Below are positions 6,264 to 22,441 of a stretch of 46,974 nt of DNA, piece by piece; positions within the stretch are counted from its first letter, which is position 1, and each line of letters opens with the position of its first letter. The stretch is from Candidatus Micrarchaeota archaeon. Lineage in GTDB: Archaea > Micrarchaeota > Micrarchaeia > Micrarchaeales > CABMGC01. Made by a program: the position numbers and the translations under genes. The stretch covers positions 1-46,974 of the forward strand of contig JAJZMZ010000036.1 in assembly GCA_021848095.1 (NCBI GenBank). Direction: 5' to 3'. The notes under the pieces are model-generated. The model was given only the letters and a program-made list of their open reading frames with translations. It had not been told where the DNA came from and searched no databases.

Positions 6264-6270
6264 TCTTATC

Positions 6271-6289: not shown

Positions 6290-6370
6290 TAAACATTTTA
6301 TTATTTTTATTTAATTCTATTATATTTTATAAATACTTTTATAAATGAGTTTATTCTAAATTACTTCATC

Positions 6371-6441
6371 GCCTTGATGGTGTAGCGGCAGCATAAGGGA
6401 CTGTGGATCCCTAGGTCCGGGTCCGACCCCCGGTCAAGGCC
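6371..6441 (+). tRNA. tRNA-His (anticodon GUG)
   Basis: Hand-folded cloverleaf: acceptor GCCTTGA/TCAAGGC, D arm GTGT-AGCGGCA-GCAT, anticodon arm AGGGA-CTGTGGA-TCCCT (GTG at 6403-6405), T arm CCGGG-TCCGACC-CCCGG, discriminator C. A TATA-like CTTTTATAAATG lies about 28 nt upstream and a T6 run follows immediately downstream. Confidence 0.85.
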
Positions 6442-6506: not shown

Positions 6507-7607
6507 ATGCTTGTAGAAATACTCTCTGTAGGTGCCATAGATGCACTAGTTCCTGTTTTGATAATAGTTGTATTTATAGGCGCAGCTGCAGGGATAAGCA
6601 GAGGATTCAGTTTTTTTAATTTATTCGGAATAGGCACATTAATGGGTATGGGTCCAAAAACCAAAGGAACACTGGCTCAAAAAACATTCAAAAAATCCTA
6701 TACAAAACCTTCTCAAAAGCCATTAAAAGTAACAAAGAAAAAATTTGAAGACAAGGAAAAGGATAAGCAAATCAAAAATGATTTCGATAGATACTTCAAC
6801 AAAGGAACAACAGCAGCAACAATAAATACCGGAGATGCAGAATCAAAAGGAACTGGTCAAATAACTGAAAACGATAAAAAGTCCCCTAATAAAGCTTTAG
6901 CTGCTTTTGAAAAATCACTAATTTTAACATCACCTCTAGTCAGGGGTGCATACGGCGCTGGAAAGGGCTTTGTAAATTTAGTAGCTAAAAAAGGCAGACT
7001 TAAAAAAATGGCAGGCGTGTTTTACAAGTATGAAGAAGAGGAGTTCAAAATAGGTAAAGGAGAGGAACAGAAAAACTTTGCAAGATATGCTAATAGAGGA
7101 AACAACACTATTCTAGAAGAAAATATATTTGGTTTAGCTGTAGCAAGAAGAGAAGTTCAAAAAGAAAAACAAAAAATAATGAATGACAAAAAACTTTCAG
7201 ATATAAAAAAGAAATTATTACTTGCAAATCTTGCAGGTCTTGATCGTGTCTTTTCAAAAAGACTTGAAAAATTAGAAGACTCTTTTGATAAAATAAATAA
7301 ATTAAAAGATTCTTATGATAAAAAATTATTAAAACTAAGGGAGATTGATGATAAAGACGCTAAAGAAAAAGAAAGACAAAAAATATCAGATGAAACATAC
7401 AAAGATTTTGCAAAAACATATACAAAATTATTCAATACTGTTGACGACTATCAAGCAGAAGAGTTAAAATCTAAAATTGAACAGCTTAGTAATGATAGAT
7501 ATGGAAAGTTTGAATTTAAATTTAATTTTGGTGGAAAAGAGAAATCAGCTGAAAAAACAAAAGGCCGTTCATTAATAGACTTTAATTTAAAAAGAAAAAA
7601 AGAATGA
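6507..7607 (+). CDS. Cluster protein 1: N-terminal hydrophobic two-helix hairpin plus long Lys/Glu-rich coiled-coil region; function unknown
   Basis: The 366-aa product starts with AIDALVPVLIIVVFIGAAAGI-SRG-FSFFNLFGIGTLMGMG. About 300 aa of K/E/D-rich, heptad-like sequence follow (LEKLEDSFDKINKLKDSYDKKLLKLREID...). I recognise no family. Confidence 0.75.
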   Translation: MLVEILSVGAIDALVPVLIIVVFIGAAAGISRGFSFFNLFGIGTLMGMGPKTKGTLAQKTFKKSYTKPSQKPLKVTKKKFEDKEKDKQIKNDFDRYFNKGTTAATINTGDAESKGTGQITENDKKSPNKALAAFEKSLILTSPLVRGAYGAGKGFVNLVAKKGRLKKMAGVFYKYEEEEFKIGKGEEQKNFARYANRGNNTILEENIFGLAVARREVQKEKQKIMNDKKLSDIKKKLLLANLAGLDRVFSKRLEKLEDSFDKINKLKDSYDKKLLKLREIDDKDAKEKERQKISDETYKDFAKTYTKLFNTVDDYQAEELKSKIEQLSNDRYGKFEFKFNFGGKEKSAEKTKGRSLIDFNLKRKKE

Positions 7608-7614
7608 ATATGAT

Positions 7615-8877
7615 GTGAAATACTTTATGCAAAAAACAAAAACATTCAGAATATCAATTATATTGACATTATTGTTATTTGGAATGACATATGCAACAAC
7701 TCCGTTTTTATGCAACTCAAAATTATTAAATAATAATCTTTACTCTGAAGTTGCATACTTTTCAAAGTACTCAATTAATAATGCAATTTCATTTTCATTA
7801 TTGGCAATATTGGCATCATTTTTCTTTGTAGCTGTTATCTATGCGATAAATAAAGTATTTCCGGAAGCTCGTTTAGGTTCATTTATAAGTAATGAGTACA
7901 AAGAAATAGTAAAATCAATATTAATAATAATCATAATTTATGGTTCATTAGCATTTTTCAGTGGTATTGCAGTTTCATTAACTGGTGCTTCAGCAGGTAC
8001 ATTCTCCACAAATCTAGGAAACCTTCTTTATAATAGTGAAGTTTACTTATGTGGTACTAATAATATTTTAACAACAGGTACTGAAAATCTTATAAGCGTT
8101 GCTTTAGCTGATGGATTGTTAAAAACATTAACAATAAGTTGGGGAGGGCTTCCGATACCTCCTGTTCCGATTCCTGGATTCGGCGCATTTCTTCCTGTAG
8201 TAAAATCAGGGGTTCAGTTTAACATACTTACTAATAATATATTCCAAACAGATTTTGTTTCAGGAACGCAGTTTGTAACCTCTGTCATGAATGATATTTT
8301 TAACAATGTCATATTCCCTGCTGTTAATTTAATAACCGTTCAAATAAGCATTCTTCCTTTATTTGAGATTATAGGTTTATGGATCTTAATACCGATTGGT
8401 TTGATATTCCGTGCACTTCCATTTATACGAGGAACAGGAGGAACATTAATTGCTTTAGGGATAGGTATTGCAATAATCTGGCCAGCAACTCTTGTGTTAT
8501 TTAATATTCCTGTATCTAACTTTTTCTATGGTTACCTGTCAGTTCACGGAGAAACTCCAACCTCTTCTTGCGCATCACTAGGTTTACTTTCTACAATATG
8601 TTCTGGATTGTCTGAGTATTCATACTACTCTCCATCAATTGCCTTAGCAAGCGCAGGAGTTTCTAGTATAGCTCCTTTCTCAATAGCACTTTCTTCGTTA
8701 TCTTCTATATATCCTGGATTGAATTACATATTGCAAAATACCCTATACATTATACTGCAAGTTTTCATACTTTTCATATTTGATTTAATAATAGCATATA
8801 CAATAACAGAAAACATAGCAAAAACATTAGGAGGATCATTAGATCTCTCATTAACTAATAAATTAAAGTTGTTTTAA
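7615..8877 (+). CDS. Cluster paralog A: polytopic membrane protein (signature-motif family)
   Basis: The 420-aa product has a signal-like N-terminus (FRISIILTLLLFGMTYATTP) and multiple TM helices. The family motif IFRALPFIRGTGGTLIALGIGIAIIWP maps to nt 8404-8484. Confidence 0.85.
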   Translation: MKYFMQKTKTFRISIILTLLLFGMTYATTPFLCNSKLLNNNLYSEVAYFSKYSINNAISFSLLAILASFFFVAVIYAINKVFPEARLGSFISNEYKEIVKSILIIIIIYGSLAFFSGIAVSLTGASAGTFSTNLGNLLYNSEVYLCGTNNILTTGTENLISVALADGLLKTLTISWGGLPIPPVPIPGFGAFLPVVKSGVQFNILTNNIFQTDFVSGTQFVTSVMNDIFNNVIFPAVNLITVQISILPLFEIIGLWILIPIGLIFRALPFIRGTGGTLIALGIGIAIIWPATLVLFNIPVSNFFYGYLSVHGETPTSSCASLGLLSTICSGLSEYSYYSPSIALASAGVSSIAPFSIALSSLSSIYPGLNYILQNTLYIILQVFILFIFDLIIAYTITENIAKTLGGSLDLSLTNKLKLF

Positions 8878-10127
8878 TGATACCATTTTTATTCGCAGTA
8901 CAGTCAACGGCATGCAACTTAGGTAATATTAATGCTAACAACTGGATTGGAATAAATGGATTAGTAATAATAGCAATGTTTTGTATCGGGGCTTTAATCT
9001 ACAGTTTAAGTTCTCTATTTCCTATACAAATTGGAAAGAAGATAAAAGGAAATGTTATTTATGAATTAAGTGAAGGAATAATTAGTCTAATAATTTTCCT
9101 TTCTTTACTTTCATTAGTATATGCGTCATGTTCTGTGGGCTCAACACTCTCAGGTCAAAGTAATTATAAAAATATCTTCCAAGCTGATGAGTATTATGTA
9201 GGCAACTTACTTTTTGTGAAAGGAACTTCTTTAGTTACACAACTTAGTTTTCAGGGAATAGCAGTAGCAATTGATGGAAATATTGTTACCTTATTATTAG
9301 GCAAGGTAACTAGCGCATTAAATAACAACTTAGGTAGTAAAAGTAGTATTTTCAATTTAGGAAGCTCCGGTTCAAGTTCTTCTGGTTCTACTGGAGCAGC
9401 TCAAATAGGTTCTGGAACAAGCAGTACAAATCCTACTGTCGGTTTTGGAGTAACTCTTGCTATGACCTCTGATGTCGAGGGATTATTCGATAGCTATGCA
9501 GGAACGTATGCGGTTTATGGATCTGGAATAGTTATAACATTTGGATTATTATTTGTTCTTTATCTTTTATTACCTATAATAACTGCATTGGCATTCACTC
9601 TTGTAGTTCCAATATCATTGATATTGAGATCATTTGGATTTTTAGGTCATGGAATAAGATCAGTATCAAATACCTTACTCGCTCTAGCAATTGCCTTTTA
9701 TATTATTTTTCCATTAACGATAAGTATGAACGCATTCATAGTTAACTGGATGTACTGTAGTAATGGCGTTACTGCTTGTAATCCTTATACGACATACACT
9801 GGAAATTATAAAATTGCAACCATACCTGTTGGTTCACTCTTTAAACAAAACACAGTTAACTTTTTGAATTACGGAGGAGTTTCTTTATCATTACCAACAA
9901 ACTTTTACGGTTCTTTAATTACTAACGGTGGAGGAGTAGGACAATCAGTTCAAAATCTTTTAGAAGGAATAATCACACTACCTAATCAAGTTGCAAGTTT
10001 TTCAACAGAGATTGCCGAGTACTTTTTTGAAGGCGTTTTATTAGTTGCAATTGATTTAATGATAACTCTTGCATTCGCACAAGGACTTACAAAAGCATTT
10101 GAACAAATACCACATTTAATAACTTAA
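8877..10127 (+). CDS. Cluster paralog B: polytopic membrane protein (divergent member)
   Basis: The 416-aa product starts in an ATGA overlap with the previous stop. It has a Gly/Ser-rich loop (GSSGSSSSGSTGAAQIGSGTSS). The motif variant ILRSFGFLGHGIRSVSNTLLALAIAFYIIFP maps to nt 9621-9713. Confidence 0.85.
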   Translation: MIPFLFAVQSTACNLGNINANNWIGINGLVIIAMFCIGALIYSLSSLFPIQIGKKIKGNVIYELSEGIISLIIFLSLLSLVYASCSVGSTLSGQSNYKNIFQADEYYVGNLLFVKGTSLVTQLSFQGIAVAIDGNIVTLLLGKVTSALNNNLGSKSSIFNLGSSGSSSSGSTGAAQIGSGTSSTNPTVGFGVTLAMTSDVEGLFDSYAGTYAVYGSGIVITFGLLFVLYLLLPIITALAFTLVVPISLILRSFGFLGHGIRSVSNTLLALAIAFYIIFPLTISMNAFIVNWMYCSNGVTACNPYTTYTGNYKIATIPVGSLFKQNTVNFLNYGGVSLSLPTNFYGSLITNGGGVGQSVQNLLEGIITLPNQVASFSTEIAEYFFEGVLLVAIDLMITLAFAQGLTKAFEQIPHLIT

Positions 10128-10145
10128 ATGAAATAAGAAGATATT

Positions 10146-11588
10146 ATGGATAAAAAAATTAACTTAAAAATTTCAAAAATTCTGTTAAGTTTATTTTTAA
10201 TCTTTTTAATATTAAATGTAAGTTCAGCTTCAACAACTACCAATTATAATTTAGAAACTCCTATCTCACAATTCCAAGCATGGTTTCCTATAATAACACT
10301 TGCAGTTATAGCAAGTTTTTCAGTAGTAATACTTTATTTTGTGTTGGGTTATGTCCTTAATAATAAGAACATGATTGGAGGAGCAAAATTAGAGATGCAA
10401 AAGGTTTTGTTTACAATAGTTGTAATGGTTATAATTATTTTATTATTAAATTATGTAGGGACGGCAGAGTACTCTACATCTTTAATATCAAAAAGTTCTA
10501 TACAAACAATCTGTAATCAATTAAATAATCCAAACACTGATAACTCTCTTGCATTTGTTAGTTCTGCAGAAAGTGTCAACTCTCCAACTTATAACATCTG
10601 TTCGGGATTGATAGCTAATGCAGGAGGTAAAAGTATTACCTCAAATCTAGATTATGGCCTTGCTTCTACTTATGTGATATTATCAAATCTCACGAATCAA
10701 GCAGCTAATAATCTGAATGCAATTTACGTTTATAGGACTTACATAGGATTTTTATCAAACTTTAAAGCTACTGATGGTCTATGTTTTCCACAAGAGACGT
10801 GCTTAGCTGGCGGAGAAGCTGCATCATTCAGTGTTGATTATGGTTACAGTCCTTTTGCAGGATATAATCCATTAGTTACTCGTTCTACAGAGTTTGTTTC
10901 AAACCAATCAACATTGATATTTTATCTTTTCATAATGCAATTACTTTTTGTATTATTAGTTATTTATGGTTGGCCATACATTCTTGCTGGGGGTTTAATA
11001 TTAAGCGCATCTACACTAACTAGAAAAGCAGGAGGTTTCTTAATTGCATTTGTTGTTTCAGCTCTTATAATATTTCCAATGATTTATCTTATGGAGTACA
11101 CTGCATTTACTTCAAACACATTATCTCCAATAGGTACAACATCATTACCTTCTCTTCAATTAACTGGAAAAACATTTAATTCAAAGATCATAACTTATGA
11201 TGGTACAAGTGCAAATTTCTTTGTATTTCCAAACGCTGCTTACGTGCTTAATTATGATGGTTGTTGGCCTCATGGCGGGTTAGTTGCACAAGAGTTACTT
11301 GTAGTTGGTGCTTATAGTGTGCCAATATACGGACTTGTTCTTGGACTTGTAAATGTATTTGGTTCATTTGGAAGTAATCAGATTAATATTCCAATACCTT
11401 TCTTTAGTTGTAATCCATCTAATGCTATAAACTCAATATTTGATTTGATGAATCTTTACGGAATCATGTCTGTTGTAGGTTTCATATTCCCATTATTGAA
11501 CATATTCATAGGCATCACTGCTACTATAGGAATATCGCAATTATTAGGCGGAACAACAAGCATACTAGGATTAAATAAATTATTATAG
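10146..11588 (+). CDS. Cluster paralog C: polytopic membrane protein
   Basis: The 480-aa product has a signal-like N-terminus and the conserved early TM WFPIITLAVIASF. It also has a Cys-containing ectoloop. The motif ILSASTLTRKAGGFLIAFVVSALIIFP maps to nt 10998-11078. Confidence 0.85.
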   Translation: MDKKINLKISKILLSLFLIFLILNVSSASTTTNYNLETPISQFQAWFPIITLAVIASFSVVILYFVLGYVLNNKNMIGGAKLEMQKVLFTIVVMVIIILLLNYVGTAEYSTSLISKSSIQTICNQLNNPNTDNSLAFVSSAESVNSPTYNICSGLIANAGGKSITSNLDYGLASTYVILSNLTNQAANNLNAIYVYRTYIGFLSNFKATDGLCFPQETCLAGGEAASFSVDYGYSPFAGYNPLVTRSTEFVSNQSTLIFYLFIMQLLFVLLVIYGWPYILAGGLILSASTLTRKAGGFLIAFVVSALIIFPMIYLMEYTAFTSNTLSPIGTTSLPSLQLTGKTFNSKIITYDGTSANFFVFPNAAYVLNYDGCWPHGGLVAQELLVVGAYSVPIYGLVLGLVNVFGSFGSNQINIPIPFFSCNPSNAINSIFDLMNLYGIMSVVGFIFPLLNIFIGITATIGISQLLGGTTSILGLNKLL

Positions 11589-11598
11589 TTGAAATATT

Positions 11599-12840
11599 AT
11601 GTTGAAAAAAAAGATTTTATTGTTTCTTTTCATTTCAATGTTATTCGTAAGTTTATCTGGAGCATCACAAACATATTGTAGTGACCTTTTCAATAATGTA
11701 CACGGAATTGTTAGTAATACGGTTTATAATTTATCTACATTTAATGCGTTAATCTCTTTTACTGGATTAATAATAATTGCAGTATTGCTTGTTATGTCCT
11801 TAATTTACGGTTTAGGGGTGGCTTTAGGTTTAGATAGTTTTAAACAATTTGCAAAAACAGAGTATGTAGAATCGTTTGTTAATTTATTAATTTTAATGTT
11901 TGTTGTAGGATCTATTTTTACATCAAGCAATGCTGTTTTATTTTTTTCTAATGTTGTTTCCTCTGCAATACCTTCTCAAACTCAATCGGGAACTGCTCAA
12001 TTAGGATCATCACAGTCATCTTCATTAGGTATAAAGGGAGTATATTTAACTATCTGTAATAATATCCTTGATGTACAGGTATTGACTGGAATCTCTATTT
12101 TGATAGGTACTTACTTACAGCTTATCTTCTATCAAATCCTTTCAGGTTTAGAAATAAGCTTTAGTTTTTCAGGCACGCACTCATTTTCACTAGGAAATCT
12201 TATACCTAGTTTTTCAATATCTCCTTTTGCTGGTTTAGGAATAACACAGGCATTTATTTATAACGAGTTTTCAGCTTTAAGTGCATTCATAGGAGTAAGT
12301 ATTGGAACAATAATCTTACTCTTCGTAATTTATTTCCTATTTCCAATTCTTTTCTTTGTCGGAGTTCTTTTTAGGTCATTTCCTTGGACACGAGCTGCAG
12401 GAGGTTCTTTAATAGCATTATTTATAGCATTTTTCATAATATTCCCTTCAATACTTTCTGCATTTACATTTTCAACAGCGTCTAATATTTTATCAAATAT
12501 AAATTCACTATGTTCTTCTTCAAATGGCGTTGGTTCAAGCGCTAGTAATCCATGTTTTTCATCAAAAGGTCTTGATTTAGTTTCATTTGCGCAAGAGTAT
12601 GGTTTAGGTTATTTATCTGGAGGTTCTACTGGATCATTTATTACTGGATTTTTATTCAAAAATGGTTTTTACTTTGATTCTAATATTGCATTGTATTCAG
12701 AAGAAGTTTCATTTTATGTAATCATGCTTATAGGTTTATTTATATCATTTCTTATATCGTATGATTTACTTGGAATATTGACAAGAATTTTAGGTTCGCC
12801 ATCATTTAAGGCGAAAAGTATATTTGGAAAGATTGTATGA
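11599..12840 (+). CDS. Cluster paralog D: polytopic membrane protein
   Basis: The 413-aa product has the signal-like N-terminus MLKKKILLFLFISMLFVSLSGAS. The motif LFRSFPWTRAAGGSLIALFIAFFIIFP maps to nt 12367-12447. Confidence 0.85.
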   Translation: MLKKKILLFLFISMLFVSLSGASQTYCSDLFNNVHGIVSNTVYNLSTFNALISFTGLIIIAVLLVMSLIYGLGVALGLDSFKQFAKTEYVESFVNLLILMFVVGSIFTSSNAVLFFSNVVSSAIPSQTQSGTAQLGSSQSSSLGIKGVYLTICNNILDVQVLTGISILIGTYLQLIFYQILSGLEISFSFSGTHSFSLGNLIPSFSISPFAGLGITQAFIYNEFSALSAFIGVSIGTIILLFVIYFLFPILFFVGVLFRSFPWTRAAGGSLIALFIAFFIIFPSILSAFTFSTASNILSNINSLCSSSNGVGSSASNPCFSSKGLDLVSFAQEYGLGYLSGGSTGSFITGFLFKNGFYFDSNIALYSEEVSFYVIMLIGLFISFLISYDLLGILTRILGSPSFKAKSIFGKIV

Positions 12841-13949
12841 GTTTATTGCCTCAAAGTTTAATGGTATTTGTTGTAAACAGCTGCATAAGTAGTGTAAACT
12901 ACTTTTTGACATCACCTTATACTACATGGTTTCCAGTTGTAACATTAGCCGTTCTAGCAAGCTTTACAATTTTAATAATAATTTACTCATTATCTACTAT
13001 TATAAATGCAGGAAAAGTTAGAAGCTGGATAAAAAATAAATTCCTTGATTTATTCATAACACTTATTCTCATAATGTCATTTGGAACTGTATCTACTTTG
13101 ATATGTGCAAGTAATCCTACTCCTTATTTTTCAAAAGCAGGTTTACTTCCTACTGCTTGTAATATCTCATCGGTAAATGACATATATGCACTTTCTCTAT
13201 GTGATTTAAATCAATTTAATACATACACTCTTCAGTTCAATCAATATCTTTACTTTTTACTTTTGATGTTTTCAATAACTCCTAAAGTTTCAGGTTCTTT
13301 ATCAATAGGTCTGAATGGTAACGCAGGTATTGCTGGAATAAATCCAAAGTTAACTGCAAATACAGGGGCGGTAGATCTTGATCCTTTTGGAAAAATAAAT
13401 AAGTTTGACGGATTCATAATGCCTGCTCTTTACTCATTAGCTTTACTTAATGAAGTAGAGCTTCTTTTGCTTTCTGCATCTCCATTACTTTTTGCTATAT
13501 TCATTGCAATAGGTTTAATCGCACGCTCATTTGAGATTACTAGAACATTTGGTAATGGCATGATAGCCTTTGCGATAGGAGTCGGATTTATATTTCCAAT
13601 AATAATTAGTCTTAATTATGGATTTATGGATTACAGCGTACAAAATTCCTTGACATTAGGTTTTGGAAACGCAGCTTCTGGAATAACACCTGCACTACTT
13701 CCTATAGCTAATCCTGTTGTTGTATTTTTATCTGCAGCTGTTGGATTTGCAACAGGTAGTGGTTCACCATTAGGCCAAGCAGCTACATTAATACCAGAAT
13801 ATTTATTTGCCTATTTGGGTTTAATAGTTATTGGGATAACGATAATACCTTTATTGACATTTACCATAGTTACTTCATTTGTTTCTGATTTCTCAGGAGC
13901 TCTAGGAGAAAGATTTGATTTAGGTAACTTATTGATAAATTTATTGTGA
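12837..13949 (+). CDS. Cluster paralog E: polytopic membrane protein
   Basis: The 370-aa product starts in an ATGA overlap with the previous gene. It has the early TM WFPVVTLAVLASF. The motif LIARSFEITRTFGNGMIAFAIGVGFIFP maps to nt 13515-13598. Confidence 0.85.
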   Translation: MSLLPQSLMVFVVNSCISSVNYFLTSPYTTWFPVVTLAVLASFTILIIIYSLSTIINAGKVRSWIKNKFLDLFITLILIMSFGTVSTLICASNPTPYFSKAGLLPTACNISSVNDIYALSLCDLNQFNTYTLQFNQYLYFLLLMFSITPKVSGSLSIGLNGNAGIAGINPKLTANTGAVDLDPFGKINKFDGFIMPALYSLALLNEVELLLLSASPLLFAIFIAIGLIARSFEITRTFGNGMIAFAIGVGFIFPIIISLNYGFMDYSVQNSLTLGFGNAASGITPALLPIANPVVVFLSAAVGFATGSGSPLGQAATLIPEYLFAYLGLIVIGITIIPLLTFTIVTSFVSDFSGALGERFDLGNLLINLL

Positions 13950-13953
13950 TTTA

Positions 13954-15042: not shown

Positions 15043-15142
15043 TATTTTTTATTTCTTATAATTAAGTTTACCTCTAAAATAGATATATTTATATTTGCGT
15101 GTTTTATTTATATTATTACATAATGAGTTGTTAAATTTGGCT

Positions 15143-15967
15143 ATGAAAACTAATATGCTTATATTCACAATTTTTATTGCAATCAGTGTTCTGTTTGCAG
15201 TGGGCACATTAGTAAGTACAAATGCAATTTTAACGATTTTATTTTCAATAATTGCGTTATTCTTCTCAGTACTTGGTTTTTCAACAAGATTTTATACTTA
15301 TTTATACATTCCATTATTCAAATCTAGAAAAAGAAATATTGTTTTAAGTAATAATGAAGCATTTTTATTGTCTCCTTCGGGGAATACAATAATTGTAAAT
15401 GACTCTGCAGGAACTTACGCTACTGCTTTTGTTAAAATACCTATTTACAGATCTTCTACAGAAATGACAGAATCTGAAAAGTTAGATTTGGGTAGAACAT
15501 TTAGTAGAGTTTTAACACTTACAAAAGAAACAACTAAGTTTTCATCAGAGATGTATGTTGTAAATAAAGATGAATACATAAATAGAGTAAGATCAAAGTT
15601 ACAAGATACCTCTGAAAAATTAAGAGAAGAGCAAGCTTCAGAATCTCCTAGTCCTGAAAAATTAGGTCGTTTAAAAGGAGAGTTAACTATGTGGGAAAAC
15701 TTAATATCAAACATTAGTAGTTCTAGGTCTGAGTCATTAGTTACTTATAATATGATAAGTGCATTCGGTCTAAATGAAGAAGAAGCATCTAGTATAGCTT
15801 ATCAAAAAGCAGAAGAAATTGCGGCAGGAATAAGTGCCGCTTTAGGCGTTACTGCTTACATTGCAGAAGGAGAGGAGTTGTTGTCTTTAATAGAACCAAA
15901 TTACATGATACCTGTAGAAACAGTCAATGAAATAATAAGACAAAAGAGCATAAAAGAGGGAATATAG
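15143..15967 (+). CDS. Cluster protein 8: two N-terminal TM helices plus cytoplasmic domain (possible VirB3/VirB4-N-like)
   Basis: I prefer the ATG at 15143 (MKTNMLIFTIFIAISVLFAVG...) over the track's upstream TTG at 15095. Two TM helices are followed by a soluble domain of about 210 aa that is homologous by eye to the next gene. Confidence 0.75.
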   Translation: MKTNMLIFTIFIAISVLFAVGTLVSTNAILTILFSIIALFFSVLGFSTRFYTYLYIPLFKSRKRNIVLSNNEAFLLSPSGNTIIVNDSAGTYATAFVKIPIYRSSTEMTESEKLDLGRTFSRVLTLTKETTKFSSEMYVVNKDEYINRVRSKLQDTSEKLREEQASESPSPEKLGRLKGELTMWENLISNISSSRSESLVTYNMISAFGLNEEEASSIAYQKAEEIAAGISAALGVTAYIAEGEELLSLIEPNYMIPVETVNEIIRQKSIKEGI

Positions 15968-15975
15968 GGGATAAA

Positions 15976-16803
15976 ATGGATGAACAAACAATAATGTATT
16001 TAGGAGTATCGGCAATAACTCCATTTGTATTGTTAGTTTCTGCATCTAGTCTGGGTTCTTTAGGTATAATTATCGATTTATTTGCAGTTATTGCAGTTGC
16101 ACTTATATTAATGTTAAATTATGCAGATTTTCTTATATTTCCTGCAGTGACAAAACTTTTAGGAATAAGAATACAGTTATCAAAAGAACATTACTGTTTA
16201 AAAGAACAAAACGCTATACTGAAGTACACTGGTGGAATTTACTATGCAACTGGATATCTCACAGCTAATATATACAATTACGTTTTCAATGCAGAGTCTT
16301 CTAATCCTAACTCAGATGACGATCAAATTTCATTAGCTCCTGAAAAATGGGAAAGAATACTAATGAATGTTGATTTTCCATTTAAATTTAATGTAATAAC
16401 TGATGCAAAAGATGTTCAAAAATACAGAGAAGATTTAGAAGGAGAAAGAGGTTTCTTAGAGTTTCAATTATCTAGAGAATCTAATTCATCAAATCCAAAT
16501 CAAATGACACTTACAGAGTTAGAACGAAAAATAAATGTTACACAAGCAAAAATAGATAAGATGTCTTCTGGAGAACTGCCTTTGAATACAATAATGTATA
16601 TAGAAACAACAGCAGTTGGTATAAGTGAAAAAGATGCAGTTGACGCACTAACGAATCAATTAAATAGATTAGAAACAGTTTTTCATACATTTGATGTAAA
16701 TATTTTAAGAGTAGTTGGAAGAGAGATACACACATTGTATAAATTAAATTATCTTTTATACGAACCTCAATTAATTGAAAAGTTATTCAACCATCAAAAA
16801 TAA
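15976..16803 (+). CDS. Cluster protein 9: paralog of protein 8 (two TM helices plus cytoplasmic domain)
   Basis: The 275-aa product has an SD-like GGGGAT 4 nt upstream. Its layout matches protein 8: G-x-Y-x-A-T/G block, F-x-F/V block, charged helical segment and C-terminal hydrophobic-acidic segment. Confidence 0.75.
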   Translation: MDEQTIMYLGVSAITPFVLLVSASSLGSLGIIIDLFAVIAVALILMLNYADFLIFPAVTKLLGIRIQLSKEHYCLKEQNAILKYTGGIYYATGYLTANIYNYVFNAESSNPNSDDDQISLAPEKWERILMNVDFPFKFNVITDAKDVQKYREDLEGERGFLEFQLSRESNSSNPNQMTLTELERKINVTQAKIDKMSSGELPLNTIMYIETTAVGISEKDAVDALTNQLNRLETVFHTFDVNILRVVGREIHTLYKLNYLLYEPQLIEKLFNHQK

Positions 16804-16849
16804 TTTTATAAAATACTACTAATTTAAATAATATTATTGTTAATGATAA

Positions 16850-18367
16850 TTGATAATCATGACGCTTTTACGTATTCAAACACTAATGAGCAATGAGATA
16901 TCAAAGCGTATATTTATCACTAGACCTCCAGAACCTCCTTCAGAATTTTTATTTAATGATCCTACAAATTCAATCTTTATAGGAACAAGTAAAATTTTCA
17001 AAGTTCCTTTTACATGGACATTCTCAAATATAACTAATCCGCACATATCAGTTGTAGGTATAACCGGAGCAGGAAAGAGTTTTTTTGTAAAAACATTCAT
17101 AACGAGGGCTAGTTATGTTTGGAATACAAATGCAATAATAATCGATTGGGCGGGGGAGTACATTTCATGGGTAAAACAAAGTGGCGGAAAGGTAATTGCT
17201 TTATCTAAAGGGGATTACCTAAATATAATGGACCTTTCAGGAATGAAGCCTTTAGATAGAACAAAACAAATAATGAACTCACTAGATATACTTACTGATA
17301 TTTCAGCATATCCTGAACAAAGAAGGCTTACATCAGAAGCTATTGAGCAAGCTTACTTGAATATGGGCTTTCCACTAGCATCACCACCTCCTCCAGGAAA
17401 AGAACCACCAACATTAAAGGATGTATCAAAACTTCTAGATGAAAAGCTACAAGAAGGTACTTATGAGTATCCAGCCGAGCTTGAAAATGCCATATATCGT
17501 TTAAGACAGTTCTCGCGTGAAGGAGAGGATTACTTCGCTAATAAAAGCACAATAGACATAGGCAAGCTTACTACATCAGGTTTAGTTGATCTAGATTTAT
17601 CTAGCCTTCCTGATGAAAGATTCAGAGCAATGGCGGCTTTATTCATACTTCAAACCTTAAAAGAAAAGATGCGTCTCGAGAGCTGGAGCTCATCAGCAGG
17701 ACTAAAAACACTAGTTGTTTTAGATGAAGCATGGAAGGTAGCTAGCGATGAAAGAAGCGATGCTGTTACTATAATAAGAGAAGGTAGAAAGTATAGCTTT
17801 GGTTTAATTGTCGCATCACAAAATCCTACTGACGTTAATGAAGCAATATTTTCAAATGTAGGGACTACGTTTATGTTAAGAATTCGTTTTGAAAAGTTCA
17901 TGAATTACTTACAAGGTTCATTAAACTTTTCAGATTTCATAAGAAATGAGATAAGCAAGTTGGGAGTAGGTCAAGCTGCAATAGATATGGCATTCAATAC
18001 TGGTGTAAGATTTCCAAATATATTTTTAGTTGACAAAATAGTTGGTGAGTTACCTTTAGATACCTACTCAATATTTCTTTCAGATATTTTATCAGAAAAA
18101 GAACTTTCAGATACACAAATTAAAAAGGAATACACATTTGATAAAATGTCAATAAACTCTCGTTTAATTGAGTTAGGCTTCGGTTCAGATGTAATAAATA
18201 AATTAATTAAGTATATGAATCAACAAGGAAGAACAGTTGACATTAGAGACTTTATTAAAACATCTATGTCTTATGGTGTAAATAAAGATGCAATAATATC
18301 TTTTATGCGTTCTATGGGAATAAGTGACTCGATAATATTGAAGATAATGTCCTACATAGTTGTGTGA
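16850..18367 (+). CDS. HerA/VirB4-clade (FtsK-HerA superfamily, DUF87/AAA_10-like) P-loop ATPase with helical-repeat C-terminal tail
   Basis: Walker A is VVGITGAGKSFFVK (GITGAGKS at nt 17057-17080), followed by IIIDWAGEY. Also present are DLDLSSLPDE, Walker B TLVVLDEAWKV and REGRKYSFGLIVASQNPTDV. All are typical of HerA/VirB4-type ATPases. The true start may be an internal ATG (MTLL... or MSNE...). Confidence 0.85.
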   Translation: MIIMTLLRIQTLMSNEISKRIFITRPPEPPSEFLFNDPTNSIFIGTSKIFKVPFTWTFSNITNPHISVVGITGAGKSFFVKTFITRASYVWNTNAIIIDWAGEYISWVKQSGGKVIALSKGDYLNIMDLSGMKPLDRTKQIMNSLDILTDISAYPEQRRLTSEAIEQAYLNMGFPLASPPPPGKEPPTLKDVSKLLDEKLQEGTYEYPAELENAIYRLRQFSREGEDYFANKSTIDIGKLTTSGLVDLDLSSLPDERFRAMAALFILQTLKEKMRLESWSSSAGLKTLVVLDEAWKVASDERSDAVTIIREGRKYSFGLIVASQNPTDVNEAIFSNVGTTFMLRIRFEKFMNYLQGSLNFSDFIRNEISKLGVGQAAIDMAFNTGVRFPNIFLVDKIVGELPLDTYSIFLSDILSEKELSDTQIKKEYTFDKMSINSRLIELGFGSDVINKLIKYMNQQGRTVDIRDFIKTSMSYGVNKDAIISFMRSMGISDSIILKIMSYIVV

Positions 18368-18668
18368 TTATTTGCAAAGTACATTTGTCGTTAGTAAAAT
18401 AGATATAAAAAAGATGCTTTCTCCATTAGGAGTTAGTCCTGGAAGTATAGAAGCGATGCTAAGCATAATGGACAAATCACACAAACATATAGATGCAATT
18501 GCATTTGTTGGAATGCTGCAAAAATTAGGAATAACATTAAATAAAATTGAAAATATTCTTAGAAGAATAGGAATTGATGATACTAGAATAGTTGAGATTT
18601 TTAACTCATTAGACGAGGAAAAAATAGAAGCAACATTCGGAAAAGTTGTAGACTTAAAAATCGAATAA
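18360..18668 (+). CDS. Small helical-repeat protein related to the ATPase C-terminal tail
   Basis: This gene overlaps the ATPase stop. The likely real start is the ATG at 18414 (MLSPLGVSPGSIEAMLSIM...). It repeats the G-[IV]-x4-I-x3-[LMI] modules seen in ATPase residues from about 433 to 505. Confidence 0.6.
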   Translation: MCDYLQSTFVVSKIDIKKMLSPLGVSPGSIEAMLSIMDKSHKHIDAIAFVGMLQKLGITLNKIENILRRIGIDDTRIVEIFNSLDEEKIEATFGKVVDLKIE

Positions 18669-18694
18669 CAATATGATTTATCAGGTAGAATAAA

Positions 18695-19141
18695 ATGGCA
18701 AAATCAAAATCAAGTTCAAAATCAAGTGATAGAAAAACATACTGTATAATGTGTGGAAAAGAAAAAAATGGAATAGAGATTAAAATCGACAATGTAATAA
18801 ATACGATACGATACATAAAGAAAAAAATATTTCACACTGAAAGGAACAACCGTTTAGTTGTTTGTGAAGAATGTTACCCATCATACTCGAAAAATAGGAA
18901 AAGATTTGTTTCAAGACAACGTCTTTACATAGGTCTAGGAGTTGTATTCCTTATTTTTTCAGTATTTCTTGCTCCTAATGTGGGTTCATTTTTAATAGGT
19001 CTTGCAATTTTATTACTTCTTTATGCATTATCATTCCTTAATTACACTCCTGAGCTATCAATATCAATTACAAAAGACAAAAAAATGCTCTCGAGGTTCC
19101 TAAATACGCATAATAAAAAGGAATTGAAAAATAATACCTGA
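18695..19141 (+). CDS. Zinc-ribbon (CxxC...CxxC) protein with two C-terminal TM helices
   Basis: The 148-aa product contains YCIMCGKEK...VVCEECYPSY, then LYIGLGVVFLIFSVFLAP and SFLIGLAILLLLYALSFL. Confidence 0.7.
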   Translation: MAKSKSSSKSSDRKTYCIMCGKEKNGIEIKIDNVINTIRYIKKKIFHTERNNRLVVCEECYPSYSKNRKRFVSRQRLYIGLGVVFLIFSVFLAPNVGSFLIGLAILLLLYALSFLNYTPELSISITKDKKMLSRFLNTHNKKELKNNT

Positions 19142-19188
19142 AACGTAACCAATAAATACGTTTTAGCATTAGTATTATTTGTGGTTTT

Positions 19189-19914
19189 TTGGCCGACGAA
19201 GTTATAATCACTCCAAAAGTTGAAAAAATAGAGATTACTGCTAAACTTAGTGGTACACTTGACGAGATAGCAGCTAAGGCATCAAAACTACCTTTTTATT
19301 CGGTATCTATGGCACAAGACTCATTATCAATAGGCATGGTAGAAAGTAGAAATATACGAAAACAACCATATCTTTTCTACATCTTCGAAATAAGAGCTGA
19401 TAAAGTTTCAATAATTTACTCAATACCTAATGACATAAGCGAAAGTATGCGTCGTGCATTTGTTCTAAGGAACTTTTCGTCATTTATTGCTGGAATATCT
19501 GATGTATACGAAGTATCACAACAAGAGTTTATGCAGTATGTAGATTCAACTACAGATAAACTACTCTCGGGATTATCTCAAAATTACAGCACACTATTTA
19601 ACAAATATGAATCATTACTTACTGAATACAGAGCTGTAAAAAGATTAAATATTGAGATCTCTGCATCTAATAGAAACCTTACTTTAGATTCATCTCAGTT
19701 AACTGAAGACAATAAAAAACTAAGATTAGAACTTGACAGATTACAAAAATACTCTGATGAATCATTGATGTCAATGATAGAAGACTGGATAACAGTTCAT
19801 GGAAGTAGTATAGATGTTGATGAGTTTGCAAAAACATACAATCTAACATCTCCTAGAGTAGAAGATGTATTGAATAAAATGGTTTCTAAAGGTTATATTG
19901 AGTTGAGGGGTTAA
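19189..19914 (+). CDS. Coiled-coil protein with C-terminal winged-helix-like domain
   Basis: The 241-aa product uses a TTG start. It has a central heptad-rich region (LTEDNKKLRLELDRLQKYSDE) and a C-terminal IDVDEFAKTYNLTSPRVEDVLNKMVSKGYIELRG wHTH-like segment. Confidence 0.65.
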   Translation: MADEVIITPKVEKIEITAKLSGTLDEIAAKASKLPFYSVSMAQDSLSIGMVESRNIRKQPYLFYIFEIRADKVSIIYSIPNDISESMRRAFVLRNFSSFIAGISDVYEVSQQEFMQYVDSTTDKLLSGLSQNYSTLFNKYESLLTEYRAVKRLNIEISASNRNLTLDSSQLTEDNKKLRLELDRLQKYSDESLMSMIEDWITVHGSSIDVDEFAKTYNLTSPRVEDVLNKMVSKGYIELRG

Positions 19915-20080
19915 GGTTGAAATATAATGTTTACATAAATACTCATTTCAAATACATTAAATCATATAAAATATTAAAAAGTGTCAAAAACAATACAAAT
20001 TTCTTATCAAAGTTAGTTATGTCATTTATAGAGAAAAAAGTAATGAAAAAAGAGAGTATTTAGTTTAAATGTGTATATAA

Positions 20081-22441
20081 ATGGTTTCAAAAAAAAAGAT
20101 AATAATTGCCGGGGTGATAATAGCAGTAGCAATAATCTTGATGTTTGTATTTATTTTTGCTTATATAAACAATCTTCTTCTAAACTTAAAACCTACATAT
20201 CTAGAAAATGGTAATATATCTACTTCATTATCTGTATTTTCATCAGGTCTCGCTTCATATAATAACTCATTATCCGCAGTTGCTTATGCTTACGTAAATT
20301 ATAATATTAAAAATGCAACTAACTCTACATTAGGATTATATTTATTTGAAAAGAATCCATTAGAAAAAATATACCTTATAAATCCATCTAACTCTTGTTA
20401 CAACTGTTTCAACTTTGGAGCTTTAAAAAATAATTTGACAACAGATTTGGCTAAATATGGTTTAATAAAAAATTCAAGCAGCTTTCAAACAATAGGTCTT
20501 CTCAATACTTCAGATGTCGCTCCTGGATCAATAGTTATAATTCCTAGCGGATTACTTCCTGCAAGCTTGCTTCCAAACACTGGTTTTTCTTCGTTAAGTA
20601 CTGTTAAAAATCTAATAACATTATTTAAGGAAAATGACACTATAATTTACGTAGGGGAAAACTTTTCAAGATTAGAAGAAGACGGTCAAATTTTACTTAC
20701 CTCTAATACAACCTCATCAATACTTAATCAGTATGGGATTGGGACTTATCCATTTTCAAATACAACTTTAACAAAGCCTTACAACTTCTCAAATCCTACA
20801 TTTAGATTTAGCAATGGTTCTTCCGTAGGTAGCATCTCTTACATAAATTTGACTGATGGTTCAATAGTGGCATTAAGCAATGCTCCTAAATTTGGTTGGA
20901 ATACTTCATCTTCATTATCTGAAGATATCTCCAGAGTAATATCTCAAAGATTTTGGATACCGATTCTTGCAGAAGGTTTTCTAAACATATCAAAAACACC
21001 AAGTTCTTCTCCATTATCTGGAAAGAACTTCATAATAACTCTTAAAAAAACAATAAACGCAACTGGAAATTACTTACAAACAGTAAACAATTCATATCCA
21101 TTAATAATATCTAAAAGTACTAACGGTTACAGAACTCAAATATTCCAAGAACTTTTTAAGTTAACGTATCTGAACAAAGCTACAATCGGTTTACCTTCAA
21201 TAATTGGTTATGGCCAATTAGTTCCTGCTCAAATAAGTATAAGCCCTTACTCTACAAACAAAGCGTTTAGTCTTATTGCTTACAACTCTTCATTAAAATA
21301 CATATACAGTTTCCCACTTAATTTTTTCAATACTTCTTATTCAGTTTTGAAGTACAGTACCTTTGATGTACCAACCGGTCAGTACTACATAGCTTCACTT
21401 GTTGATATAAACAATAAATCATATGGAAATGCAGCGTTTTATGTTCCTTTCTTAAATATAACAACATCATCATCGGATTTCAAGAATGCAAGTTTTGTAC
21501 TTAATATAATGAGTGGAAGTATACCTCTTTCAAATATGCCCTATACTATAAGTATAAACAATCAATTCAAAGAACAAGGAATAATCCATAATGGAGTTAT
21601 AAACTATACTCTTCCAAAAGGAAGCGTTTTGAATTATGGTTATCAAACAATTAAATTAAGTTTAATTAATGTTAACTACTCTGTCCTTGAGTATTATCAA
21701 GCTCCTCCAGGAATTCCTCCTTTGTATATAGAGTTCGGAGTAGCAGCATTCATAATTCTTTTATTAAATGTAGTATTAAGACCTCCTAACACTGAAAACT
21801 ACTTCATAGATGTTCCAGAGATGCTTCCAATAAAAAAAGAAGAAGTAACTATAAAGTCCGATCAGATAATTAACTTGTTTGATACGCTTAACTTTAAATA
21901 TAACTGGAAGTATATGCCATTAACTTCAGAAGAGATAAAGCTTGGAATAAGCAGTAATATAAGAAAAGACAATATGCCAATATCAATAACACTTCAAAAT
22001 ACAAAACGTATTTTGTATAAGCTTTCATCTCAAGGGAAGATATACTCAACAAATAATTACTATCTTCCAACAGATTGGGTTAAAAAATCAGGACATGATT
22101 CAGAGTATTTAATAGCGTTTAGAAAGCTTAGAGACTTTTTTGTTTCTCATGCAATTCCATTTACTGATATAGACAAAGCATCAGATTGCGATATGATAGC
22201 AAACGTGCGTCAAAAAACATACAAGATATTTATTTTTTCAAAAACTTCAGGAGTAAGACCTATGAAAATAAGTAAGGAAAATAAAAATATTATAATATTT
22301 TTAAGTAATGAAGAAAAACTTAACTTTATTGATTCGCTATACTCCGTTTACGACGCAGAAATGAATGAGTTAAGATTAGCTATGTATTCTGGATATTTAG
22401 AATTAGGTGATGTACAAAATCTAATGTCTGTGTTCTCTTAA
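20081..22441 (+). CDS. Large bitopic surface protein: N-terminal anchor, sequon-rich ectodomain, second TM, cytoplasmic wHTH-like/possible nuclease-like domain
   Basis: The 786-aa product starts with the anchor KKKIIIAGVIIAVAIILMFVFIFAY. An ectodomain of about 520 aa carries dozens of N-x-S/T sequons. A second TM helix, FGVAAFIILLLNVVL, is followed by a soluble C-terminal region of about 230 aa. Confidence 0.8.
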   Translation: MVSKKKIIIAGVIIAVAIILMFVFIFAYINNLLLNLKPTYLENGNISTSLSVFSSGLASYNNSLSAVAYAYVNYNIKNATNSTLGLYLFEKNPLEKIYLINPSNSCYNCFNFGALKNNLTTDLAKYGLIKNSSSFQTIGLLNTSDVAPGSIVIIPSGLLPASLLPNTGFSSLSTVKNLITLFKENDTIIYVGENFSRLEEDGQILLTSNTTSSILNQYGIGTYPFSNTTLTKPYNFSNPTFRFSNGSSVGSISYINLTDGSIVALSNAPKFGWNTSSSLSEDISRVISQRFWIPILAEGFLNISKTPSSSPLSGKNFIITLKKTINATGNYLQTVNNSYPLIISKSTNGYRTQIFQELFKLTYLNKATIGLPSIIGYGQLVPAQISISPYSTNKAFSLIAYNSSLKYIYSFPLNFFNTSYSVLKYSTFDVPTGQYYIASLVDINNKSYGNAAFYVPFLNITTSSSDFKNASFVLNIMSGSIPLSNMPYTISINNQFKEQGIIHNGVINYTLPKGSVLNYGYQTIKLSLINVNYSVLEYYQAPPGIPPLYIEFGVAAFIILLLNVVLRPPNTENYFIDVPEMLPIKKEEVTIKSDQIINLFDTLNFKYNWKYMPLTSEEIKLGISSNIRKDNMPISITLQNTKRILYKLSSQGKIYSTNNYYLPTDWVKKSGHDSEYLIAFRKLRDFFVSHAIPFTDIDKASDCDMIANVRQKTYKIFIFSKTSGVRPMKISKENKNIIIFLSNEEKLNFIDSLYSVYDAEMNELRLAMYSGYLELGDVQNLMSVFS

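Follow-up and report, generated by a model that had tools for sequence, protein, structure and literature searches.

A conserved 14-gene membrane and surface protein cluster of Micrarchaeota with a VirB4/HerA-type ATPase

Introduction

The Ced and Ted systems of archaea (CedA/CedE, CedA1, CedA2, CedB and CedD; TedA-C) are chromosomal, 'domesticated' machines that lack a relaxase and combine a HerA/VirB4-type ATPase with polytopic membrane partners of five transmembrane (TM) segments. We examined a locus that resembles them in these respects, a cluster of 14 genes in a 46,974-nucleotide stretch of DNA from a Candidatus Micrarchaeota archaeon (NCBI GenBank assembly GCA_021848095.1, contig JAJZMZ010000036.1, positions 1 to 46,974; hereafter, the window). 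The comparisons reported below lead us to regard the cluster, with a probability of roughly 0.55, as a vertically inherited core machine of the Micrarchaeota cytoplasmic membrane and cell surface that is driven by a VirB4/HerA-type ATPase and is related, in strongly derived form, to type IV secretion systems (T4SSs) and to Ced and Ted. It also departs from Ced and Ted: the ATPase, encoded by gene 10, has neither a TM segment nor an N-terminal domain of its own, there are six candidate channel paralogs rather than one or two, and the cluster has no VirB2-like pilin (CedA1/TedC). Furthermore, Ced is UV-inducible and found only in Crenarchaeota, whereas the Micrarchaeota system looks constitutive and phylum-specific.

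Other described systems share different features with the cluster. In conjugative T4SSs of the MPF-FATA type (PrgI/VirB3, PrgJ/VirB4, PrgH/VirB6 and the PrgK hydrolase), one or more small or medium-sized membrane proteins precede the ATPase, as they do here. Unlike these systems, the Micrarchaeota cluster does not lie on a plasmid and lacks a relaxase, a coupling protein and a hydrolase, and its membrane components show no detectable sequence similarity to theirs. The rvh T4SS of Rickettsiales is, like the cluster, chromosomal, vertically inherited and splittable into islets within a reduced, host-dependent genome; it has five VirB6 paralogs, and the cluster has a tandem set of six paralogs, alike mainly in a single TM-loop-TM segment. 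However, the rvh paralogs are recognisable as TrbL/VirB6 (PF04610) and are accompanied by the other VirB components, whereas the Micrarchaeota paralogs do not match PF04610. Finally, the Patescibacteria (candidate phyla radiation, CPR) are ultra-small episymbionts, most genomes of which encode a relaxase-less, VirB4-centred system thought to serve host interaction or macromolecule transfer. That system contains a bona fide VirB4 nested in the MPF-FATA clade together with recognisable VirB6, VirB3 and VirB2 proteins, and the Micrarchaeota cluster is far more divergent. We found no published description of the cluster, including in the papers on the cultured Micrarchaeota Mia14, A_DKE (Ca. Micrarchaeum harzensis) and ARM-1.

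Results

The ATPase motor aligns with the C-terminal domain of VirB4

Among the 14 proteins, a Pfam gathering score is reached by the product of gene 10 only (Table 1). This protein consists of a motor (residues ~40-380) and a helical-repeat tail (residues ~425-502). The window copy carries the motifs GITGAGKS, VVLDEAW and REGRK, and across 81 ATPase sequences GITGxGKS, LDEAW, REGRK and ASQNPTD show no or almost no variation. Judged by these motifs, gene 10 encodes a catalytically intact ATPase and an active motor.

Table 1 Matches of the gene 10 protein to Pfam and NCBIfam profiles, with the threshold of each family
Profile	Extent of match	E value	Score (bits)	Threshold
Pfam DUF87 / HerA central domain			54	gathering score 23.2
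Pfam AAA_10			44.7	gathering score 27.5
Pfam TraG P-loop			33.1	gathering score 25.8
NCBIfam CedD	partial	2.5e-20	72.6	cut-off 600
NCBIfam VirB4-like CD1110	residues 41-366	1e-17	64	cut-off 325
NCBIfam HerA_Thermprot	partial, residues ~239-401	2.6e-16	59	cut-off 800
NCBIfam CedB	partial	3e-16	59.1	cut-off 700
NCBIfam VirB4 of mycoplasma ICEs (integrative and conjugative elements; VirB4_plasma)	residues 47-330	3e-15		score far below cut-off
NCBIfam TraC	residues 58-372	5e-14	51	cut-off 567
NCBIfam helicase_HerA	residues ~239-401		52	cut-off 970
TIGR00929 VirB4_CagE			37.2	cut-off 643
TrbE model			10.8	cut-off 1020

In NCBIfam, the best matches include CedD and CedB, as partial alignments. The matches that cover the whole motor are of the VirB4 type (CD1110, VirB4_plasma and TraC), whereas those to HerA fall mainly within residues ~240-400; against HerA structures and models, E values ranged from 1e-10 to 1e-20. 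Searching 72,556 plasmids, we found 500 that encode a relative of the ATPase at only 22-27% identity, 243 of which are typed as conjugative, and many of these relatives are annotated as TraC. The best of them are VirB4-like and sit behind a PrgI (VirB3-like) gene and ahead of cell-wall hydrolases, which is the classic T4SS gene order of monoderms. In hhalign, gene 10 matched clostridial VirB4-like ATPases at 98.2% and 97.6%, its residues 39-381 aligning only to their C-terminal domains. The N-terminal domain of VirB4 (CagE_TrbE_VirB, PF03135) had no Pfam match in gene 10, in which ~69 residues precede the Walker A motif, presumably too few for the N-terminal barrel of HerA.

These profile, plasmid and hhalign comparisons agree with an earlier, sequence-only reading of the window, which had called the ATPase HerA/VirB4-type: its full-length matches are conjugation ATPases of the VirB4/TraC type. 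At the level of profile alignment, they establish that the motor domain is homologous throughout to the domain at the C terminus of VirB4-type conjugation ATPases. By the same measure, gene 10 appears to be the equivalent of a VirB4 C-terminal domain with a lineage-specific tail, outside the curated VirB4, CedB, CedD and HerA families.

The tail itself has a homolog in gene 11, which always follows the ATPase gene in the surveyed loci: residues 425-502 of gene 10 align with residues 6-83 of gene 11 (hhalign, 97.3%, E 2.6e-11). Compared with the Protein Data Bank (PDB), the joint tail/gene 11 profile was like pentatricopeptide repeat (PPR) proteins only as a sum of weak stretches, the matches being designed PPR proteins, and a Pfam scan of 76 members of the gene 11/ATPase-tail alignment gave no recurrent meaningful family. 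In one locus (L038, ~11500-12800), ~1.3 kb is inserted between the ATPase gene and gene 11, which are contiguous elsewhere and overlap in the window.

Gene order is conserved among Micrarchaeota

In a survey of one genome per GTDB species, relatives of the ATPase were encoded in 354 species-level genomes. More than 1100 homologs were present in the database, of which the best 120 are ~501 amino acids long and 67-96% identical; where the organism is named, it is Candidatus Micrarchaeota, Micrarchaeia or Micrarchaeaceae, except for two bacterial labels. For detailed synteny, we compared the 80 best ATPase loci by tBLASTn of all 14 proteins. Almost all are metagenome-assembled genomes of Micrarchaeota, with a few contigs labelled otherwise, and one is a complete chromosome of 853 kb. 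Genes 2-14 are collinear on one strand in 39 of the 80 loci, and most of the others end at contig ends. The ATPase gene is immediately preceded by genes 8 and 9 in 53 of the 56 loci with 9 kb of upstream DNA and followed by genes 11-14, with gene 14 after gene 13, in 56 of the 63 with enough downstream DNA; genes 10, 11 and 12 are together in every locus that reaches past the ATPase. The neighbouring genes for topoisomerase VI-B (Top6B), a KH protein and eIF2-gamma are kept beside gene 14 in 55 loci. Conservation of the neighbourhood in related genomes, set beforehand as a point on which the proposed machine could fail, is thus evident, and the organism had correctly been guessed to be a small-genome archaeon (DPANN), here a member of the Micrarchaeota.

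Departures from this order were also seen. In the complete chromosome, the six paralogs (genes 2-7) and genes 8 and 9 are at ~383-393 kb and the ATPase module at ~254 kb, ~130 kb apart, and two loci have genes 13 and 14 upstream and in inverted orientation. The gene 1 ortholog comes first in close relatives and stands between genes 7 and 8 in others (L057, L059, L061, L062, L064, L065 and L077). The cluster was also present, with an ATPase identity of 70-74%, under the labels 'Saccharimonadales bacterium', 'bacterium', 'Aquilonibacter' or 'Marsarchaeota' (L009, L015 and L021, and proteins P0018, P0072, P0134 and P0176); these contigs look like mis-binned or mislabelled Micrarchaeota. Database names were 'ATP-binding protein' or 'HerA-like ATPase' for the ATPase and 'hypothetical protein' for its partners.

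We compared mean identities to the window proteins across 19 distant loci (Table 2). The ATPase is more conserved than eIF2-gamma, and the motor therefore evolves more slowly than a core translation factor. Judged by the same identities, the parts of the machine predicted to be exposed evolve fast.

Such conservation would also fit a housekeeping DNA pump for chromosome segregation or cell division, in which a membrane-anchored HerA-type motor with lineage-specific membrane partners would stand in functionally for FtsK/SpoIIIE. The ATPase is a member of the FtsK-HerA superfamily, its conservation exceeds that of Top6B as well as eIF2-gamma, and the cluster holds a conserved place among housekeeping genes, beside topoisomerase VI. 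Gene 13, whose orthologs are 41-91% identical, adds a C-terminal winged helix (~195-240) with weak, non-significant matches to the division protein CdvB (NCBIfam, 1.8e-4), to ESCRT-II EAP30/PCI (Pfam, ~1e-3) and to PDB entry 2xvc (E 0.46); its profile matched nothing significantly among PDB sequences. The winged helix of CdvB mediates protein-protein contact, not DNA binding. Nevertheless, the Pfam match of gene 10 to FtsK_SpoIIIE is marginal and under the cut-off (E 0.0065), the best full-domain matches are instead VirB4/TraC, and six polytopic paralogs and a heavily glycosylated surface protein would be unexpected at a division site. On balance, we consider a DNA pump quite improbable.

Table 2 The 14 genes of the cluster and two neighbouring genes used for comparison, with mean identity to the window proteins in 19 distant loci
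Gene	Coordinates	Strand	Description	Mean identity
1	6507..7607	+	N-terminal membrane anchor and 343-aa Lys/Arg-rich (79 K+R) coiled-coil region; one hydrophobic segment
2	7615..8877	+	Paralog 1/6; hhalign against genes 3-7 98.6-99.6%; shared motif FRALPFIRGTGGTLIALGIGIAIIWP; no Pfam family	30-35% (genes 2-6)
3	8877..10127	+	Paralog 2/6; hhalign 95.5-98.6%; collinear orthologs	30-35% (genes 2-6)
4	10146..11588	+	Paralog 3/6; hhalign 95.5-99.3%; largest predicted external loop (149 aa, 4 Cys); collinear orthologs	30-35% (genes 2-6)
5	11599..12840	+	Paralog 4/6; hhalign 98.4-99.6%; BLASTP against gene 7 E 1.6e-10; collinear orthologs	30-35% (genes 2-6)
6	12837..13949	+	Paralog 5/6; hhalign 97.5-98.9%; collinear orthologs	30-35% (genes 2-6)
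7	13954..15042	+	Paralog 6/6, best conserved; signal peptide and five TM helices	45%
8	15095..15967, probable start ATG 15143	+	TM hairpin and ~228-aa cytoplasmic alpha/beta domain	43%
9	15976..16803	+	N-terminal TM hairpin and cytoplasmic alpha/beta domain; gene 8 paralog	50%
10	16850..18367, probable start ATG 16859	+	Soluble P-loop ATPase of the HerA/VirB4 assemblage; no TM segment	69.5%
11	18360..18668	+	99-102-aa helical-hairpin-repeat protein, homologous to the ATPase C-terminal tail	46%
12	18695..19141	+	Cytoplasmic zinc ribbon (CxxC...CxxC), then TM hairpin at 76-114	47%
13	19189..19914	+	Soluble; N-terminal alpha/beta domain, coiled coil (~125-190), C-terminal winged helix	53%
14	20081..22441	+	786 aa; N-terminal signal/anchor, ~520-aa predicted external part, TM 548-566, 220-aa cytoplasmic tail	36%
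Top6B				63.3%
eIF2-gamma				63.3%

Genes 8 and 9 may supply detached VirB4 N-terminal modules

The proteins encoded by genes 8 and 9 are paralogs (hhalign, 97.7%, E 1.9e-12 over 226 columns), each with two adjacent N-terminal TM segments ahead of the soluble domain of ~228 residues. Gene 9 orthologs are uniform in length (274 ± 1 amino acids) at 46-97% identity. AlphaFold2 gave an alpha/beta model for gene 9 with a predicted local distance difference test score (pLDDT) of 81.6, and the six best Foldseek matches of this model in the PDB were all TrwK/VirB4 chains of the R388 T4SS. None reached E ≤ 1e-3; the best had an E value of 0.03 and a probability of 0.97 over 202 columns, with a root-mean-square deviation of 6.4 Å and a template-modelling score of 0.37.

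A 2024 preprint reports that CedB and CedD each have TM helices plus a domain that matches a different part of the VirB4 N-terminal domain, the function of which is thus shared between these two paralogs. Because of this precedent, and because the Micrarchaeota ATPase lacks such parts, we infer with moderate support that genes 8 and 9 are 'VirB3 hairpin plus VirB4 N-terminal-like' modules and may be the equivalents of those domains. Unlike in Ced and Ted, the putative modules would be encoded here by separate genes without ATPase domains.

Sequence comparisons of these two proteins gave little. The gene 9 profile had no significant match among PDB sequences, and a Pfam scan of 121 members of its alignment found no recurrent meaningful family. 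With hhalign, one weak match (E 0.005, probability 7%) was to the N-terminal region of a clostridial VirB4-like protein, and comparisons of genes 8 and 9 with TrwM and PrgI (VirB3-like), both single-sequence targets, stayed below significance. More broadly, ortholog alignments compared by hhalign with single R388 sequences (VirB2, B3, B4, B5, B6 and B8) and with clostridial PrgI and its neighbours were negative except for gene 10, a weak test because the targets were single sequences. On the C. perfringens plasmid pJFP838A (L084: 6218-9212), a separate 312-amino-acid hypothetical gene lies between the PrgI gene and a shortened DUF87 ATPase of 641 amino acids, an arrangement that may represent a bacterial VirB4 split into N- and C-terminal genes; the 312-amino-acid protein had no significant hhalign match to genes 8 and 9.

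Genes 2-7 form a family of six membrane proteins

All 15 pairs among genes 2-7 are homologous by hhalign (95.5-99.6%), and each protein has five predicted helices. The matches found between them by BLASTP are collinear and centred on R-x-[FL]-P-x-x-R-x-x-G-G-x-[LM]-I-A ... I-I-[FW]-P, and conservation is concentrated in one TM-cytoplasmic loop-TM segment. Gene 2 has collinear orthologs at 27-89% identity. Of the 57 loci with at least one paralog, 39 have exactly six. Throughout the phylum, a separate ortholog can be assigned to every paralog and their order is unchanged, so the duplications that produced the six must be older than the divergence of the lineages sampled. The sequence-only reading had recognised six paralogous polytopic proteins and set them beside VirB6 and CedA; the paralogy is upheld, and homology to VirB6 or CedA is not established.

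The best-conserved paralog, gene 7, yielded a confident AlphaFold2 model (pLDDT 90.3, predicted template-modelling score 0.80) that is all-helical, with helices of 35-57 residues that must, at this length, project beyond the bilayer. Combining the model with hydrophobicity and charge, we predict a cleavable signal peptide, an N terminus outside the cell with a conserved Cys pair, TM1 and TM2, an outside domain of ~80 residues, TM3, a conserved Arg/Pro/Gly-Gly cytoplasmic loop, TM4, an outside segment, TM5 and a cytoplasmic C terminus. The conserved loop, R-x3-P-x-R-x2-GG, is thus predicted to face the cytoplasm, and the invariant residues of gene 7 are C32, W44, C46, R240, P244, R246, G249 and G250. 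This predicted topology agrees with that of A. tumefaciens VirB6 which, reportedly in Jakubowski et al. 2004, has its N terminus outside, five TM segments, its C terminus inside and a large loop between TM2 and TM3. In Foldseek, R388 VirB6 appeared at rank 11 of the gene 7 matches (E 0.44, probability 0.41, template-modelling scores 0.26/0.32), with the best template-modelling score listed, which is not significant.

The five VirB6 paralogs of Rickettsia have been described as 'extraordinarily duplicated' and conserved only in a short TM-cytoplasmic region. The gene 7 profile retrieved 1170 representative sequences (50% clustering), and all nine with an organism name are Micrarchaeota; named members of the family include the cultured ARM-1 (ARM1_0375), Anstonellales and Gugararchaeum. 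Some members (P0247-P0250, P0258-P0260, P0267, P0347 and P0365, one of them from Anstonellaceae) have long N-terminal extensions, giving 470-1457 amino acids against the usual ~360, and recall the enlarged VirB6 paralogs of Rickettsia.

Despite their large predicted external loops, genes 2-7 contain only 0-3 N-x-S/T sequons each, against 25 in gene 14, which suggests that the outside parts of the paralogs are buried in a complex or lie beneath a glycosylated layer.

The remaining partners and the case for an unrelated envelope machine

The 13 proteins other than the ATPase gave nothing above any cut-off in scans of Pfam, NCBIfam, PADLOC and PHROGs; by these scans, 13 of the 14 fall outside known families. 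For gene 1, no Pfam or NCBIfam family was found. Gene 12, which has four conserved Cys and always follows gene 11 in the surveyed loci, matched no Pfam or NCBIfam family at cut-off. Gene 14 has its sequons (3.2 per 100 amino acids) mostly in the predicted external part, and its cytoplasmic tail is conserved, with 17 invariant positions; the tail profile retrieved nothing from the PDB. A PD-(D/E)xK nuclease motif that we had suspected in this tail was dropped, as the residues are not conserved.

This novelty could mean that the cluster is a lineage-specific envelope machine that recruited a HerA-superfamily ATPase and has no further T4SS ancestry. Such a machine might build or anchor an S-layer, receptor or docking platform, or export surface proteins rather than nucleic acid. 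Besides the number of proteins without a known family, this reading can point to the gene 7 model, for which no solved structure is a match, to the large surface protein of gene 14 with its many sequons, and to the lack of a pilin, VirD4 and relaxase in the cluster. In addition, cryo-electron tomography (cryo-ET) of the cultured Micrarchaeote ARM-1 has revealed host nanotubes docking on a 21-nm envelope barrel, and ARM-1 also encodes a gene 7 homolog. What argues for T4SS ancestry instead is that the ATPase is related over its whole domain to conjugation ATPases encoded in VirB3-VirB4 contexts, that the top structural matches of gene 9 are VirB4 and that the predicted topology and paralog-conservation pattern of genes 2-7 parallel VirB6. 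We therefore regard an envelope machine without such ancestry as doubtful, if a serious contender.

The cluster occupies a stable housekeeping neighbourhood

Open reading frame (ORF) calling on the window returned 14 ORFs on the + strand at 6507-22441, the same-strand layout and coordinates that had been read from the sequence earlier, and the protein content given then (the sets of paralogs, the ATPase motifs and the helical-repeat, zinc-ribbon, coiled-coil/winged-helix and 786-amino-acid proteins) was confirmed. The overlaps required one correction. As had been claimed, genes 5 and 6 share a 4-nt ATGA at 12837 and genes 10 and 11 overlap (18360-18367), the latter by 8 nt provided that gene 11 starts at TTG; the junction of genes 2 and 3 at 8877, claimed as another ATGA, is a 1-nt TAATG overlap. 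The larger gaps (15043-15142, 16804-16849/16858, 18669-18694, 19142-19188 and 19915-20080) are as described, and the one before gene 8 does hold a T-run and a TATA-like box, which is promoter-like. Another TATA-like box lies just 3' of the tRNA-His gene, ahead of gene 1. Scanning the window for sigma-70 promoters and terminators gave chance-level results, these bacterial models being inapplicable to archaeal promoters. For genes 8 and 10, the shorter starts (ATG 15143 and ATG 16859) are favoured because ortholog lengths agree: gene 8 orthologs have a median length of 277 amino acids, and gene 10 from ATG 16859 encodes 502 amino acids, compared with 501-502 in orthologs.

Upstream of the cluster are genes for ribosomal proteins S4e, L6, L18 and S5 and tRNA-His (6371-6441), with gene 1 beginning 66 nt after the last. 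Downstream, on the opposite strand, are genes for topoisomerase VI-B, the KH protein, ribosomal protein S6e, eIF2-gamma and CDC48, and the remaining genes of the window are likewise housekeeping. GC content is ~31% across the window, without a step at either cluster border.

A start so close to a tRNA gene is what a resident or domesticated mobile element (an ICE or a provirus) inserted at tRNA-His might show, and an ATPase of this type could also belong to a HerA-based anti-phage defence island. Gene 10 passes the DUF87 threshold and matches HerA structures and models, as well as defence HerA models and one phage family (E ~1e-20) over part of the P-loop domain only. In PADLOC, its matches were to the generic HerA/DndH/mad8 models alone, and in PHROGs to a terminase (1.4e-12) over residues 279-364 only; its partners matched neither resource. 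IMG/VR held no relative, and phage records gave only 3 weak matches. Pfam scans of the cluster recovered no integrase, relaxase or replication gene, as the sequence-only reading had stated. The 3' end of tRNA-His is not repeated anywhere in the window, we found no direct repeats flanking the cluster, and its base composition is that of its flanks. The same housekeeping neighbours recur across the phylum, and in the complete chromosome the two halves are ~130 kb apart and both retained. NurA, Mre11, Rad50, Sir2 or another defence partner was absent from the 14 proteins and the scanned flanking genes; neither a HerA-NurA repair context nor one of viral packaging, either of which had been named in advance as fatal to the idea, is seen. 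Unlike HerA-based defence systems, which occur in variable islands, the cluster has a fixed context. It differs from these and from HerA-NurA in that its partners are membrane proteins and the similarity of its motor to HerA is mostly limited to the C-terminal half. A mobile-element or defence origin is thus largely refuted, and we think it very improbable.

The sole small two-helix secreted ORF of the window is gene 12. The complete chromosome (OY969902) encodes, immediately upstream of its six-paralog module, a 129-amino-acid protein (L081:506-895, +) with a signal peptide and a pair of hydrophobic helices; in Pfam it came closest to T4SS_pilin and the TrbC/VirB2 pilin, over near-whole profiles but far below threshold (E 0.12 and 0.47). 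A homolog with 39% identity (L007:14710-15165, +) lies 3 kb downstream of the ATPase module in another genome, and in both genomes the neighbours are polytopic proteins of ~240 and ~620 amino acids. The window and the other 78 loci yielded no homolog.

Two further features concern the flanks. The ribosomal operon (457-6441) ends at S5 and is followed by tRNA-His; L30, L15 and SecY genes, which usually come after S5 in archaea, are absent there. The tRNA-Val(TAC) at 43513-43603 (-) was called at 91 nt, ~15-20 nt above the standard length, suggesting an archaeal tRNA intron.

Discussion

Our analysis supports the view that the cluster encodes a membrane system of several subunits, with an ATPase of the HerA/VirB4 superfamily, and that it lacks a housekeeping identity. 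The sequence-only reading had called it a T4SS/Ced-like machine; homology of the partners did not follow and the curated family cut-offs were not reached, so that, with homology demonstrated for the motor only, 'T4SS/Ced-like' is best taken as a reasonable functional analogy. A T4SS/Ced ancestry of the non-motor parts is plausible but unproven.

Several observations weigh against that ancestry. Only the motor of the machine is demonstrably homologous to T4SS parts. By score, the ATPase is about equally distant from HerA, CedB, CedD and VirB4 and misses every curated cut-off widely, and its extreme conservation would also fit a housekeeping role unrelated to cell-cell exchange. The structural match of gene 9 to VirB4 is sub-threshold, Foldseek does not report which part of VirB4 is aligned, and sequence profiles (PDB sequences, Pfam and hhalign) give no confirmation of it. 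TrbL/VirB6 (PF04610) was unmatched in Pfam by genes 2-7 and by 115 gene 7 orthologs, hhalign against TrwI (R388 VirB6) returned nothing, as a weak test against a single-sequence target, and the gene 7 model had no Foldseek match at E ≤ 1e-3 in the PDB or BFVD. Finally, no VirB2-type pilin, VirB8, VirD4, relaxase or cell-wall hydrolase is recognisable in the cluster with Pfam and NCBIfam.

If the cluster is nonetheless a derived relative of T4SSs and Ced/Ted, as we favour, its parts could be arranged as follows. Gene 10 would form a hexamer, like its superfamily, and would be docked at the membrane by genes 8 and 9 acting as VirB3 and the VirB4 N-terminal domain, a 'split VirB4'. Genes 2-7 would build a hetero-oligomeric channel or stalk in place of VirB6/CedA, with the motor beneath it; six distinct subunits would fit a six-fold motor. 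Glycosylated gene 14 would be the surface-exposed part and could signal to the cytoplasm through its conserved tail, while genes 1, 11, 12 and 13 may be accessory proteins, adaptors or regulators. ATP hydrolysis would then move a macromolecule across the envelope. By analogy with Ced and Ted, nucleic acid is by default the most likely putative cargo, and it would suit cells that rely on their hosts for nucleotides. The Patescibacteria, with a relaxase-less VirB4 system in nearly every genome, offer a close parallel.

Cryo-ET of DPANN archaea has shown bridges, nanotubes and a docking barrel. Relatives carrying the cluster, a defined set of 14 genes, came from each of the Micrarchaeota lineages sampled, and we see in it a good candidate for the means by which Micrarchaeota and their hosts exchange material. 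A fuller version of this proposal holds that it is the symbiont-side apparatus of that exchange and represents a new class of archaeal cell-cell transport. In such an apparatus, genes 2-7 would form a six-paralog ring matching the six-fold symmetry of a VirB4-like motor, the membrane-anchoring N-terminal half of which would be split off into genes 8 and 9, and the gene 14 glycoprotein would form a cap; the machine could import host nucleic acid or other cytoplasmic material. It could also be, or nucleate, the 21-nm ARM-1 barrel on which host nanotubes dock. That the cluster builds this barrel is speculation, and the accessions we sought were not in the ARM-1 proteomics supplements; taken as a whole, the fuller version seems to us unlikely.

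In practical terms, proteomics, antibody work, the fitting of subtomograms and the prediction of complexes all gain defined targets from the conserved cluster. Most of it may well be new: should the relationship to T4SSs prove false, 13 of the 14 proteins would represent new families building an unknown machine. Should it prove true, the family of conjugation machines would extend to a DPANN phylum, in which VirB4 would be divided into a motor and separate membrane-anchored N-terminal modules, and Micrarchaeota would provide the second massive expansion of VirB6-type paralogs in a host-dependent reduced genome, after Rickettsiales.

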